A stretch of 5,954 nucleotides of DNA, taken from positions 1 through 5,954 of the IMG/VR virus record IMGVR_UViG_3300045988_015384; one strand, written 5' to 3'. This DNA is from a virus. The position numbers and the translations under genes were made by a program. The notes under the pieces were generated by a model that had not been told where the DNA came from, ran no database searches, and was given only the letters and a program-made list of their open reading frames with translations. Shown here one piece after another: positions 1 to 5,954 of the stretch (its first letter is position 1; every line of letters starts with the position of its first letter).

Positions 1-141
1 AAATTGACTTTGTCTCTGTCCTTCTGCGTTCTGATATTGGTATGCTCCTTTTAGATACTGCATTACCTGTTCGTCATTCGTTCCGGACTTGCTCATGCTT
101 TGGCTTTGTCCACCGCCTTGCTGTGTACTTCCGCCTTGACT
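1..141. repeat. Terminal direct repeat, left copy. Identical to 5814-5954, so this is the overlap from linearising a circular genome of 5,813 nt.
   Basis: I compared 1-141 with 5814-5954 base by base and found an exact match. The reading frame open at 5954 on the minus strand continues without a stop through 142-264. Confidence 0.95.
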
Positions 142-1988: not shown

Positions 1989-2397
1989 TCTTCATGTTTC
2001 CTTCCTTCGGTGTTTCCTTCGGTGTTTCCTTCGGTGTTTCCTTCGGTGTTTCCTTCTGGATTTCTTGCAGTGCCAGCGCGTTTGCCTGTGCTGTTGCGAT
2101 CATGCGGTGGTATTCGTGGATGTTCTGCGGCCATTCCGTAACGTCTACCTCTGTGCCGTCCAACGCTCCCTGTGAAAGGCTCTGCATAAACTGCGGGTCA
2201 AACGACGCTTTGCGGACAATGTTTTTAATATCGCATTCATCCGCATAGCTTTCGATTTCGCCCTGGATGTCGATGCTTTCAGTTTCCTGCAGATACTCTT
2301 TGCCCTCTTTGTCCTTTGCCCAGATATATTGCTTGCGCTGTTTTTCGCCTGATTCAGAAAAGAAGGGCTTTCGCCCTTCTTCATACCTCTTATTCAT
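1975..2397 (-). CDS. VP3: Internal scaffolding protein VP3, 140 aa from ATG 2397, with a C-terminal (KETP)4 repeat.
   Basis: ATG 2397-2395 is preceded by GGGAGGG 8 nt upstream and overlaps the stop of the upstream gene (ATGAATAA). The ADECDIKNIVRKAS and DVTEWPQNIHEY segments resemble the ECDIN.I and D.TE.P motifs I recall for gokushovirus VP3. The longer track ORF (to 2457) starts at TTG with only a weak GGCAGAG upstream. Confidence 0.75.
   Translation of the reverse strand: MNKRYEEGRKPFFSESGEKQRKQYIWAKDKEGKEYLQETESIDIQGEIESYADECDIKNIVRKASFDPQFMQSLSQGALDGTEVDVTEWPQNIHEYHRMIATAQANALALQEIQKETPKETPKETPKETPKEGNMKNEQE
1996..2056. repeat. Tandem repeat: four exact 12-nt units (ccttcggtgttt at 2004-2015, 2016-2027, 2028-2039, 2040-2051) plus partial flanking copies.
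   Basis: Read directly from the sequence. On the coding strand each unit is AAACACCGAAGG, coding KETP in the VP3 frame. Confidence 0.95.
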
Positions 2398-3104: not shown

Positions 3105-3497
3105 TTACACCCCCTTTCTGTACTTTCCGTCTCTTGTATCAAAGTGCACCCAGTTGTCGTATACGATGATGCCACAGCTGTTTGGTACGATACTGTTTAG
3201 CACTTTTGCGAGTTCTTTTGGCTTTACGCCGTCTGCTCTGATGTCTGCTGCCATGCCTCTTGTGTGATAACTGTATTTTGCTCCGCCTACTTTTTCATTG
3301 TGACTTATTGTGCGGTATCCGCTTGTAATCGTGATTGGCTTTTTGATTATGTTTCTTGCGATGTTTAGAGTGATTGCTAGATAATCGTCAACGAATACGA
3401 TTGGCGTTCCGTCTTTACATGCAAATTCTTTTACTTTGAAGTGGCTTGTAATGTTTTCATTTCCTTGTGCTTCCATCACATATGCTTTGATTTCCAT
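3105..3497 (-). CDS. Zinc D-Ala-D-Ala carboxypeptidase-fold peptidase (Peptidase_M15_3/M15A-like), candidate endolysin, 130 aa from ATG 3497.
   Basis: The layout FKVKEFACKDG...ITSGYRT...N..VGGA..SYHTRGMAADI...WVHFDTR matches the M15 pattern SGYR, H-x6-D and H.D zinc ligands. ATG 3497-3495 has AAAGGAG 8 nt upstream. The 162-aa track version starts at TTG 3593 inside orf60. Confidence 0.8.
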   Translation of the reverse strand: MEIKAYVMEAQGNENITSHFKVKEFACKDGTPIVFVDDYLAITLNIARNIIKKPITITSGYRTISHNEKVGGAKYSYHTRGMAADIRADGVKPKELAKVLNSIVPNSCGIIVYDNWVHFDTRDGKYRKGV

Positions 3498-3525
3498 GTT
3501 TGCGGCTCCTTTCTTTGCTTTTATT

Positions 3526-3708
3526 TTATGCAAATATTTCTGTTTTGTCAATACGGTAAAGTTCAACAGAATCAATTCCACGTAGTTGTGCAAGTTTGCT
3601 TGCGTAACTTCTTGCCTCTTTTGTCGTCATGCTTTTCAACTCTTTTGTGCTGGTGCAGTCGTCGTGATTTACCACCATGAGAAACTTATAAATTTTCTGT
3701 TCAGCCAT
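3526..3708 (-). CDS. Hypothetical protein, 60 aa, first gene downstream of the promoter. No recognisable family.
   Basis: ATG 3708-3706 with AAGGGGG about 9 nt upstream and the TATAAT box 27 nt upstream. There is no hydrophobic segment. Confidence 0.6.
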   Translation of the reverse strand: MAEQKIYKFLMVVNHDDCTSTKELKSMTTKEARSYASKLAQLRGIDSVELYRIDKTEIFA

Positions 3709-3734
3709 TTTTGTGGCCCCCTTTCTTTGATTAT

Positions 3735-3788
3735 ATTATAGCATTTTTTTGGGCAAAAGTCAATGTTTTTTAGCTTTTTTTAGTTTTT
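3735..3788 (-). promoter_or_regulatory. Near-consensus sigma70/sigmaA-type promoter: -35 TTGACT (3763-3758), 17-nt spacer, extended -10 TGCTATAAT (3743-3735), and phased A-tracts upstream that act as an UP-element-like region (3771-3766, 3781-3775, 3788-3784).
   Basis: The minus strand reads CCAAAAACTAAAAAAAGCTAAAAAACATTGACTTTTGCCCAAAAAAATGCTATAATATAATCAAAGAAAGGGGGCCACAAAAATG. The -35 is 5/6, the -10 is 6/6, the TG is at the extended -10 position, and spacing was counted as 17. Confidence 0.75.
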
Positions 3789-3789
3789 G

Positions 3790-3828
3790 GTCTGCGTCCG
3801 GTCGTGGCGACCGGCGAATAGAGCAGAC
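3790..3828. other. GC-rich nested hairpin: outer stem gtctgc/gcagac (3790-3795 / 3823-3828), inner 7-bp stem ccggtcg/cgaccgg (3798-3804 / 3808-3814) with a 3-nt loop.
   Basis: I checked the reverse complements by eye. An alternative partner ccggacgg at 3848-3855 could pair with gcgtccgg at 3795-3802 (7 of 8). Confidence 0.7.
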
Positions 3829-3867
3829 GTAACTTTTCCGTTTGATTCCGGACGGCCTTTATTTTGC

Positions 3868-4031
3868 TTTTCAACATTTTCCACAGACTTTTCAACATTT
3901 TCACATTGTTAAACTTTAGCACAACAAATTGTTTTAACAATTCAACATTTTTTCAACAAGTCTTTCAACGGTTGTTTTTACTGTTTTCTAACGTTCTTAT
4001 GTTCAAAATTATCTGTTTTCAACATTTCCAC
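3868..4031 (+). repeat. Iteron array: TTCAAC cores at 3870, 3891, 3941, 3952, 3964 and 4018. Three long copies read TTTTCAACATTT(T)(C)CAC(A/G) at 3868-3885, 3889-3905 and 4016-4031.
   Basis: Read directly. There are six copies of one hexamer in about 160 nt, with spacings of 21, 50, 11, 12 and 54 nt. TTTTCCACA at 3877-3885 fits the DnaA-box consensus TTWTNCACA. Confidence 0.8.
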
Positions 4032-4070
4032 GTACTCTACTACTACGGCTACAACAAGTTAATATAATAA

Positions 4071-4116
4071 TACGCGTGCGCGTGTGCGCGCGTCTACGCG
4101 TGCGCGTGTGCGCGCG
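4071..4116. repeat. Two exact direct copies of the 22-nt TACGCGTGCGCGTGTGCGCGCG (4071-4092 and 4095-4116) separated by TC. Each copy is a perfect alternating pyrimidine-purine tract.
   Basis: Read directly and checked position by position for Y-R alternation. The region is dense in CpG inside an AT-rich intergenic region and contains ACGCGT and GCGCGC palindromes. Confidence 0.95.
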
Positions 4117-4120
4117 AATA

Positions 4121-4152
4121 AGGCCAGTACCTTACTTGATAGGTACTGGCCT
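4121..4152 (-). other. Perfect 12-bp inverted repeat hairpin (AGGCCAGTACCT / AGGTACTGGCCT) with an 8-nt loop (plus-strand TACTTGAT), 12 nt downstream of the VP4 stop. Candidate terminator and/or replication-origin structure.
   Basis: The reverse complement was checked and is perfect. On the coding strand the stem is followed only by TATT and then a CG tract, so the U-tract is poor for a classical intrinsic terminator. Confidence 0.6.
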
Positions 4153-4164
4153 AGGTGACACTAA

Positions 4165-5184
4165 TTATAGAATTCCGCGTTTTTTCGTTTGTTTTTTGGT
4201 AACACGCTCTTTTGTTTCTAACTGTGTTTTGTAGTCTTTGCCTTCCAACTGCAATCTTTTCTGCTCTATTGCCTTTCTTTGTCTGTTCTGCTTGATTCGC
4301 CAAAGCCTTTCAGGGTTTTCTTTTTCCATCATCTTTTCATAATATCGCGGTATTTGTGCCTTTTTGCCATTGGTGCATTGAATGTAGCCCTGTTTCCAGA
4401 TCTCTTCTTTGTGCTCTTGATAGTACGCATCGCCTAGCCCCGGTTTAAGCGACATGCACGCGAATGGCTTTTGTTGTCCTAACTCATAATAGGCATTTGC
4501 TTTCTGGCCGTTAATTTCGTACATTTTTTTTGTAACATACCCTGCAACATATCTATATGTTTCAGGTACAGCTTGTGCTATTTGAATTTGTCCGTTTCCC
4601 CATAGCTTTTGCATCCATTCACTTGTATAGTATCCGTTGTGATGGATTTTGTACAGTTGTTTTAGGTCTGTTGGTTGCCATCCGTATAGAATCATGTGAT
4701 AGTGTGGTCTTGCTGTTTGTTCTCCGTACTCTCCTGCACAGAAATAGCGCAATTTGCCGCCGTAAGCCTTTCTGAGACGTTTTAAAAATTTCTGAACGTC
4801 TGAATACATTAGTGTTTGTACGCTCTCTGGCGCTTTCTTTCCCGGCTTCCAGATGTATTGCACTTTTCTCATGATTTCGCCTGTACTTAGAATCATTCCC
4901 GGTACGTGGTCATCATCGTAAGTTAGTGTGATAAACCAGACTTGTTCTTTTGGCCACTGCCGCGCCTCTAGTTCAATTCTTGTTGTCCAATCTTCTCTTT
5001 GTTGAATTCTGCACCCAATGCATTGTCCGCATGGTATTAGCATAACTTTTGGTTCATACATCAAATCTTCATATTTTAATTTTTTGCCCACTCTTTCAGA
5101 AAAGCGGGCAAGTGAATACACCTGCCCGCTGATTTCTCTGTTTTCCGGGCTGTATATCCGAATTAACGGTTTATAACAGCTCAT
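4165..5184 (-). CDS. VP4: Replication initiation protein VP4 (HUH-superfamily rolling-circle endonuclease, phiX174 gpA-like), 339 aa.
   Basis: It carries motif 1 WFITLTYDD, motif 2 RPHYHMILYG (HUH-type HYH), motif 3 YVAGYVTKK (catalytic Tyr region), and an N-terminal PCGQCIGCR Cys cluster typical of microvirus VP4. The ATG overlaps the VP2 stop as ATGA (5184-5181). Confidence 0.92.
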   Translation of the reverse strand: MSCYKPLIRIYSPENREISGQVYSLARFSERVGKKLKYEDLMYEPKVMLIPCGQCIGCRIQQREDWTTRIELEARQWPKEQVWFITLTYDDDHVPGMILSTGEIMRKVQYIWKPGKKAPESVQTLMYSDVQKFLKRLRKAYGGKLRYFCAGEYGEQTARPHYHMILYGWQPTDLKQLYKIHHNGYYTSEWMQKLWGNGQIQIAQAVPETYRYVAGYVTKKMYEINGQKANAYYELGQQKPFACMSLKPGLGDAYYQEHKEEIWKQGYIQCTNGKKAQIPRYYEKMMEKENPERLWRIKQNRQRKAIEQKRLQLEGKDYKTQLETKERVTKKQTKKRGIL

Positions 5185-5954
5185 CTTAAATAATCACCCG
5201 GCTTTCTTTGTTGTCCGTAACTTCCTGTTTTGTCTTGCATGGTTACTGCGTTCTTTTTTGCACCACCAAAGTTTTGTGCGGTTATGCCTCCGTGCTCGTT
5301 TTTTCCGGATGTTCTGTTACCTGTGTTTACACCTTCTTCGATTGCATTTCCTGCTTTTTCTCCGATTTCGGATAGTGCTTTTTGCAATCCTAGTGGTGTC
5401 ATGTTTGTACTGCTTAACATCTGGTTCCAGCTTTGTGCGGCGTTGTACCAATCACTTTGTGACCAACTTTCACTGCTGTACGAGTTTGGCACAAATCCGC
5501 TTGCTCTGCTTACTCCCAGCGCGCTTGACGATGGTGCGCCCATGCTTGCGCCTGAAATCGTTCCTGCGCTACCTCCCGGCGTGCTTGCACCGCCGTTCTG
5601 GAATGCCAATATAGGATTAAGGCCTGCTTTTTTCATGTCCTCAACTGCCCTCTGATAGGCTGTATTTGACATGTGTTCTTGCCATTCTCGATTTTTCATG
5701 GCTTCTGTGCTGTTGAAATTCATTGCTGTTGCGTTTTCGATGTGGTTATATACGCCCTGCATGATTGCTCCCAATGTGTTATAGCCCATCTGTTCCAGCA
5801 TTGATTTCTGGTTAAATTGACTTTGTCTCTGTCCTTCTGCGTTCTGATATTGGTATGCTCCTTTTAGATACTGCATTACCTGTTCGTCATTCGTTCCGGA
5901 CTTGCTCATGCTTTGGCTTTGTCCACCGCCTTGCTGTGTACTTCCGCCTTGACT
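5181..5954 (-). CDS. VP2: 3' portion of the VP2 DNA pilot protein gene. The frame is open to the window end, and the true start is ATG 264-262 after circular wrap.
   Basis: The block NREWQEHMSNTAYQRAVEDMKKAGLNPILAF is the conserved microvirus VP2 core. The frame stays open upstream of the internal ATG at 5909 (…SQGGSTQQGGGQSQS-M), which has no SD. Confidence 0.88.
   Translation of the reverse strand, partial: SQGGSTQQGGGQSQSMSKSGTNDEQVMQYLKGAYQYQNAEGQRQSQFNQKSMLEQMGYNTLGAIMQGVYNHIENATAMNFNSTEAMKNREWQEHMSNTAYQRAVEDMKKAGLNPILAFQNGGASTPGGSAGTISGASMGAPSSSALGVSRASGFVPNSYSSESWSQSDWYNAAQSWNQMLSSTNMTPLGLQKALSEIGEKAGNAIEEGVNTGNRTSGKNEHGGITAQNFGGAKKNAVTMQDKTGSYGQQRKPGDYLR
5814..5954. repeat. Terminal direct repeat, right copy (identical to 1-141).
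   Basis: Exact match to 1-141. Confidence 0.95.

Follow-up and report, generated by a model that had tools for sequence, protein, structure and literature searches.

The stretch of DNA analysed here, referred to below as the window, is 5954 nt long and spans one complete, circular gokushovirus genome whose unit length is 5813 nt. It has an exact direct terminal repeat of 141 nt (window positions 1-141 and 5814-5954), which is the assembly sign of a circular genome. All of the genes are on the minus strand. They are VP1 (303-1988), the scaffold protein VP3 (1975-2457), VP5 (2390-2629), an M15 peptidase (3105-3593; Peptidase_M15_3, E = 1.3e-20), VP4/Rep (4165-5184; PF23343, 1.2e-18) and VP2, which runs from 5181 onward and crosses the contig end. 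VP4 is a predicted HUH endonuclease with two catalytic tyrosines. The M15 peptidase is probably a horizontally acquired lysis enzyme; some gut Microviridae have been reported to carry such a gene (PMC3394797). At its C-terminus (encoded at 1996-2055, minus strand), the VP3 scaffold contains a fivefold KETP tandem repeat (KETPKETPKETPKETPKE).

The Rep stop is followed by an intergenic region of 456 nt (3709-4164). Read along the coding strand, this region contains in order the sequence GTGTCAC, a hairpin, a pair of alternating, CG-rich 21-mers, an AT-rich run, the sequence AACTTGTTGTAGCCGTAGTAGTAG, four copies of ATGTTGAA, and a promoter. The promoter (3763-3735, minus strand) is of near-consensus sigma-70 type, TTGACT-17-TATAAT with an extended -10 TG, and downstream of it are a strong ribosome-binding site and an ORF of 60 codons (3708-3526), which overlaps the first part of the M15 peptidase ORF. 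A search of Rfam found nothing relevant.

The hairpin, a putative replication origin, is located at 4121-4152 and is described here on the plus strand. It has a 5' arm at 4121-4132 (AGGCCAGTACCT), a loop at 4133-4140 (TACTTGAT) and a 3' arm at 4141-4152 (AGGTACTGGCCT). It had been described in a sequence-only reading of the window as a flawless 12-bp stem-loop beginning 12 nt beyond the VP4 stop, and this is confirmed: the arms are 100% complementary, giving a perfect 12-bp stem closed by an 8-nt loop, and the start is 12 nt past the VP4/Rep stop. As single-stranded DNA it folds with -13.1 kcal/mol on either strand (z ~ -6), and none of 200 shuffled sequences folded as well. The same reading called it atypical as a terminator, with only TATT after it on the coding strand, and this is also correct. 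An intrinsic terminator has a GC-rich stem and then a T run; here the stem is followed by TATTCG, and a terminator scan makes no call.

The loop region contains the candidate nick core CTTG/ATA (4135-4141, plus strand; the slash marks the putative cut, between G4138 and A4139), which is identical to the core in phiX174. The phiX174 cleavage site was given correctly in the earlier reading: NC_001422 reads CAACTTGATATTAATAACACTATAGACCAC, with the rep_origin at A4306. The claimed 8-nt identity is also real: ACTTGATA at 4134-4141 matches the verified site. This octamer occurs only once in the window, on the plus strand. It is not significant alone, because 0.14 copies are expected by chance per window and at least one copy is present in 26 of 200 shuffles. 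On the 3' side of the hairpin is a GTGACAC box (4155-4161, plus strand), which is invariant in the clade. Counted from the putative nick, its TGACAC portion (4156-4161) is at +18 to +23 and may be a half-site bound by Rep. The caveat raised at the outset, that the strand carrying the motif is antisense to the genes, is real.

A comparison with related genomes had been proposed as a check, and was made on 54 IMG/VR loci having Reps 52-96% identical to that of the window. The hairpin is kept in every relative whose Rep stop falls inside the fetched locus (49/49), with a conserved loop and compensatory changes in the stem. The pairs at the base of the stem compensate among relatives, where they read GGCC, GCCC, GTCC, GCCA and GCCT. 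Among the 49 distinct sequences of the clade, pairing is kept in 97.3% of stem cells, both sides have changed in three of the pairs, and the stem covariation score was reached by none of 500 shuffles. The sequence TACTTGATAG is invariant in all 49. On the plus strand, the loop (TACTTGATAG), the 3' arm and the GTGACAC box are invariant or nearly so in the clade, while the 5' arm varies and is kept only so far as it pairs, even losing the top pair. The one-sided conservation of loop, 3' arm and box is the pattern predicted for a protein that reads from the nick towards the 3' side, and a variable 5' arm that still pairs is expected if its sole function is stem formation. Immediately beyond the hairpin, the relatives have one of three unrelated sequence modules, which implies that the hairpin travels with Rep.

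The asymmetry of G-T wobble pairs in the origin stem was uninformative: in 12 sequences the coding strand is favoured by the top pair, and in 5 sequences the plus strand is favoured by three other pairs. Six relatives (L031, L048, L049, L074, L076 and L081) have a second copy of TACTTGATAG lacking a hairpin, roughly 60 nt from the hairpin and on the strand that carries the origin motif, with CTGATACA at the position of the box. It is absent from the window, and may be a secondary Rep site or the relic of a duplication.

The element was then defined across the family, as CTTG in a hairpin loop followed after 14-19 nt by (T/A)GAC.AC. A sample of 80 whole contigs was collected by Rep similarity, from 95% down to 30% identity, and counts were made over 85 genomes. 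The element is present exactly once per genome in 72 of these 85 Rep-sampled gokushoviruses, compared to 0-1 of 85 after shuffling. The stem sequences are unrelated between clades, and the GAC of the box begins 18-19 nt after the G of CTTG across the family. The window has all of these features: a CTTG(A/T)T loop, a stem of at least 6 bp, and the box at 18-19 nt on the same strand, in a single non-coding copy. Two further matches were judged to be due to chance, namely a hairpin within a coding region in L124, and ACTTGATAAGG...AGACAC, which is inside the L102/L103 Rep gene and lacks a hairpin.

From 100 diverse copies of the element we built a model based on sequence alone; CTTG is invariant in these copies, as the selection pattern required. 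The model finds a full match in the window at 4130-4164 on the plus strand (24.4 bits, E = 7e-7), the window itself and the reference phages having been left out of the model and members of the window's own clade included. This is the sole significant match in the window. In each of three cultured gokushoviruses, the best match of the model is the intergenic hairpin, on the coding strand: in phiMH2K the copy is at 3296-3335 and the match at 3310-3335 (E = 0.009), in SpV4 they are at 513-543 and 522-549 (E = 0.04), and in Chp2 at 2904-2941 and 2918-2945 (E = 0.05). The position of the element relative to Rep varies. The SpV4 hairpin begins 8 nt past the Rep stop, which is the same place as in the window; in L100-104 the element is next to the start codon of Rep, with a proper terminator upstream of it; in the L122 clade it is approximately 190 nt upstream of Rep; and in Chp2 it is between VP3 and ORF8. 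This variation rules out a conserved role as a Rep terminator. Literature searches found no description of a CTTGAT hairpin element in Gokushovirinae, and no mapped gokushovirus replication origin.

The sequence-only reading also pointed to a second partial match, AACTTG at 4060-4055 beside the AT-rich run. The match is present, but as a candidate nick site it does not stand: it has no hairpin and no box, and the model gives it 3.1 bits (E = 4.3). It is contained in the conserved block AACTTGTTGTAGCCGTAGTAGTAG (4037-4060, minus strand), which has the form AACTTGTTGTAG.CGTAGTAGTAG followed by GTTGAAA-type repeats and is conserved across the gut superclade to which the window belongs. In L100-104 this block is inverted relative to the genes and the hairpin and is located upstream of Rep, yet the compositional skew (described below) is unchanged, which also speaks against AACTTG as the nick site. 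The block probably acts in double-stranded form. The wider non-coding block at 3870-4060 (minus strand) consists of AACTTGTTGTAGCCGTAGTAGTAG (4060-4037) and then four ATGTTGAA repeats (at 4025, 3948, 3898 and 3877); it is iteron-like, and is conserved at the DNA level even in L054 (Rep 52% identical) and L100-104 (Rep ~39% identical). Between the hairpin and the AT-rich run, at 4073-4117, are the two 21-nt copies of alternating purine-pyrimidine, CG-rich sequence (ACGCGTGCGCGTGTGCGCGCG, with TCT between). This tract is kept in many relatives, some of which have an inserted module between it and the hairpin. It is uninformative as a test of strand, since as single-stranded DNA the two strands fold with -20.8 and -20.7 kcal/mol.

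The motif is antisense to the genes in the large gut superclade that includes the window and in about eight other lineages; the cultured gokushoviruses Chp2, SpV4 and phiMH2K have it on the coding strand. We compared this orientation with base composition at four-fold degenerate sites of the coding strand. The window has A.49, G.23, C.18 and T.10. The corresponding values are A.07 and T.63 in phiX174, T.65 in SpV4 and T.50 in Chp2, and the profile of the window is thus approximately the complement of that in T-rich genomes such as phiX174 or L122. An excess of thymine at third codon positions in ssDNA phages has been ascribed to cytosine deamination on the exposed strand (PMC3278643). Among gokushovirus contigs L060-L648, four-fold sites are either purine-rich (A ~.45, T ~.1) or pyrimidine-rich (T.5-.8, A ~.1), and there is a third, phiMH2K-like group with A>T and C >> G.

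The comparison was extended from the first 85 genomes by two motif-based samples and a further Rep-based sample, to give 253 distinct Reps. The motif is on the coding strand in 186 of these and antisense in 67, and the median four-fold (A-T)/(A+T) is +0.57 for the antisense orientation and -0.33 for the coding orientation. A tree of the Reps, whose deep branches are weakly supported, contains 11 maximal antisense clades. Three of them make up the single gut superclade, which is monophyletic on better trees, and the number of independent flips is therefore approximately nine. In all 11 contrasts, the composition of the antisense clade is displaced towards A when compared with the coding-orientation sister (p = 0.001), and when the three gut clades are counted as one flip, the shift is towards A in 9 of 9 (p = 0.004). 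An IQ-TREE analysis of a subset places the superclade (98*, inside a 99* group) among strongly T-rich gut clades of coding orientation. FastTree had given it a 'sister' with a skew of +0.47, which the subset tree identifies as a misplacement. One of the T-rich relatives is the L122 clade, which comes largely from the same metagenome as most relatives of the window. Across the flip that gave rise to the superclade, the skew changes from about -0.7 to +0.6. The non-coding skew is in the same direction, the gene-sense A/T ratio being 1.3-2.25 in antisense-orientation clades versus 0.86 in the L122 clade.

The association is not a rule. A exceeds T in 28% of genomes with the coding orientation, for example L486 (A.46, T.08), L641 (A.62) and phiMH2K, and T exceeds A in one genome of antisense orientation, L487. 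The rule that an A-rich coding strand indicates an inverted orientation was therefore rejected, with L486, L196, L149, L456, L641 and phiMH2K as counterexamples on one side and L487 on the other. Origin orientation does not account for the compositions of the phiMH2K-like group, L486 and L641, and the skew is a noisy reporter that has other causes too. When orientation was tested against skew sign by binary independent pairs, there were too few supported flips and the result was not significant. Close relatives of the A-rich, coding-orientation L486 were sought and none was found.

The direction of substitution was also examined, by parsimony counts at conserved four-fold sites, with rates expressed in coding-strand terms per parent base and branch (x10^-3). 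In the L122 clade, where the motif is on the coding strand, the rates are C>T 95, G>A 18, G>T 63 and C>A 10. In the clade of the window, where it is antisense, they are C>T 54, G>A 91, G>T 28 and C>A 50, and in a further antisense clade (the 55% clade) they are C>T 48, G>A 93, G>T 15.5 and C>A 43. In all three clades there is thus an excess of C>T and G>T on the strand that bears the motif, and the spectrum is mirrored with the orientation. Damage to single-stranded DNA is expected to produce such changes. The known bias of parsimony acts against this mirrored result. Selection for A-ending codons could mimic or contribute to the substitution asymmetry.

Orientation predicts a strand asymmetry that extends over the whole genome, and the element is for this reason best explained as an origin that chooses which strand is displaced and packaged. 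The nick core, together with a two-tyrosine HUH Rep, points to a viral-strand nick origin rather than to a host priming site. The sequence-only reading had put the hairpin forward as a candidate Rep nick site, and this proposal has gained support from the conservation, the compensatory stems, the family-wide element and the orientation-linked asymmetry. On balance we favour the interpretation that the hairpin is the rolling-circle viral-strand origin nicked by VP4, in which case the clade would consist of negative-sense microviruses. In either orientation it is the T-rich strand that bears the nick-type motif, and the antisense caveat is thus a reason to question the assumed polarity and to keep the site.

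The origin could work as follows. The inverted repeat would be extruded in the supercoiled replicative form, or melted by VP4, so that the loop on the plus strand becomes single-stranded. VP4 would bind both the TGACAC box and the 3' arm, nick the strand at G4138/A4139, and stay linked to the 5' phosphate of A4139, leaving the 3'-OH of G4138 to prime synthesis. After one round, the second tyrosine would cut and reseal the displaced strand. This displaced, motif-bearing strand would be the one fed into procapsids. Here it would be the plus strand of the window, which is antisense to every gene, and hence the clade would be negative-sense. More generally, it is moderately probable, judging from sequence comparisons, that the orientation of this element of about 45 nt sets the packaged strand, that it has flipped approximately nine times, and that the mammalian-gut superclade is negative-sense. 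The known members of the Microviridae are taken to be positive-sense, and none is known to package the antisense strand. The hairpin is located in the 3' UTR of the Rep mRNA, and so an added role at the RNA level is possible.

The hairpin might instead be a complementary-strand origin, read by a host primase, primosome or RNA polymerase and not nicked by Rep. Both phiX174 and G4 have intergenic hairpins that serve the second-strand step, hairpins in other small microviruses have been interpreted in this way (PMC9865509), and a signal acting on single-stranded DNA would likewise be orientation-specific and would likewise track the packaged strand. However, the loop that stays invariant is the core nicked by the phiX174 enzyme and is not a known priming signal, the conservation is asymmetric and extends from the nick to a box 18-23 nt away on the 3' side, and the element is kept across phages of probably very different hosts, for which a reader encoded by the phage fits better. 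We regard a priming site as unlikely, and were it one, the plus strand would still be the packaged strand. Somewhat less likely still is a Rep origin in a phage that is positive-sense after all, with Rep acting on the loop of the coding strand (ATCAAGTA) or the element working in double-stranded form. This would agree with the polarity that is assumed for the family. The perfectly palindromic stem gives both strands the same hairpin with the same energy, and A-rich coding strands also occur together with a coding-strand motif (L486, L641, phiMH2K). On the other hand, what HUH enzymes recognise is a sequence in single-stranded form, from which the complement differs, the box is one-sided and changes side together with the loop, and neither the 11/11 skew contrasts nor the mirrored substitution spectrum would be expected if the orientation were irrelevant.

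Two further explanations dispense with an origin altogether. The hairpin could serve solely to terminate transcription or to stabilise the 3' end of the VP2-Rep mRNA, as its strong GC-containing stem 12 nt past the Rep stop would allow; some relatives also have a T-rich stretch after it on the coding strand. The window has no U-tract at this point (TATTCG) and the scan makes no call, while the invariance of the loop and box is needless for a terminator. Moreover, the element adjoins the Rep start codon past a proper terminator in L100-104, is elsewhere in the L122 clade, Chp2 and phiMH2K, and is found in both orientations relative to transcription. The doubt expressed earlier about a pure terminator is thus supported, and we consider this explanation very unlikely. 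Finally, the 12-8-12 geometry resembles the core sites of tyrosine recombinases (Xer/dif-like or lox-like), which could function in integration or dimer resolution, and some gokushoviruses do integrate via dif-like motifs (PMC7062461). Such a site is hard to reconcile with asymmetric conservation and with a central region that is invariant across clades having different stems. The genome has no recombinase gene. There are at least 120 15-mer matches in bacterial genomes, but none of those listed carries the hairpin and all look like chance. A recombinase site is the least credible of these explanations, and we give it almost no weight.

Gokushoviruses are among the most abundant phages of gut and aquatic viromes. 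If the preferred reading, a VP4-nicked origin whose orientation sets the packaged strand, is true, the assumption that Microviridae are uniformly positive-sense would be overturned, and the two-peaked distribution of A-rich and T-rich third codon positions in gokushoviruses would be explained. The packaged strand would then have to be taken from the origin, and not from the genes, in strand-aware virome methods, and the same change would apply to codon-usage-based host prediction and to evolutionary models. Inversion of the origin would also amount to a natural experiment in which the effect of single-strandedness on the mutation spectrum can be seen.

Among the closest known systems is phiX174, which belongs to the same virus family and would share the one rolling-circle mechanism. 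Its 30-nt origin (NC_001422) reads CAACTTG/ATATTAATAACACTATAGACCAC, with protein A cutting between G4305 and A4306. The core ACTTG/ATA is identical to that of the window, and 8 of the 10 positions of CAACTTG/ATA match (ACTTGATA), only the first two bases being different. phiX174 has GACCAC at +18 to +23, so that in both phages a GAC..AC box occurs 18-19 nt after the nick. The enzymes are also alike: HYH 161-163 and YVAGY 212-216 of VP4 align with HFH 263-265 and YVAKY 343-347 of gpA, and VP4 has YVAGYVTKK where protein A has YVAKYVNKK. The differences are that the window site is in the loop of a 12-bp hairpin, is intergenic, has a GC-containing 3' arm as its spacer and is antisense to all genes, whereas the phiX174 site has no hairpin, is inside gene A, has an AT-rich spacer and is coding-sense. 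Aligned without gaps, window positions 4132-4161 match phiX174 at 15/30 (the core of 8 nt, CTA, and CAC at the end); without the core the match is 7/22, which is not significant by itself. A link at the level of the profile was likewise not significant, the phiX174 origin being only the second-best match of the model in that genome (4.9 bits, E = 1.1). Because the family model misses the phiX174 origin, the argument for homology rests on the short core and the enzyme. The best match of the model in phiX174 (L056), at 3915-3934 near the end of gene H (TAACCGTCAGGATTGACACC; 5.7 bits, E = 0.63), is probably due to chance.

Within the subfamily, the cultured phages Chp2, SpV4 and phiMH2K have the same loop motif, box and spacing, also in one copy, but there the coding strand bears the motif, and the window is inverted relative to them. 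The double-strand origins of rolling-circle plasmids of the pC194/pUB110 type have the nick site CTTG/ATA. This is the same heptamer core, although there it is used by a Rep of a different family (Rep_1), in a plasmid replicon with no capsid packaging. The overall arrangement is similar to that in CRESS-DNA viruses such as circoviruses and geminiviruses, where the nick site is in a hairpin loop beside rep with a short repeat or box flanking it, and where the orientation of the genes relative to the nicked strand differs among lineages. These viruses differ in having an unrelated loop (of the NANTATTAC type), a one-tyrosine Rep with a helicase domain, and eukaryotic hosts. If the polarity reading proposed here is true, the polarity of ssDNA phages would be as flexible as that of CRESS-DNA viruses.
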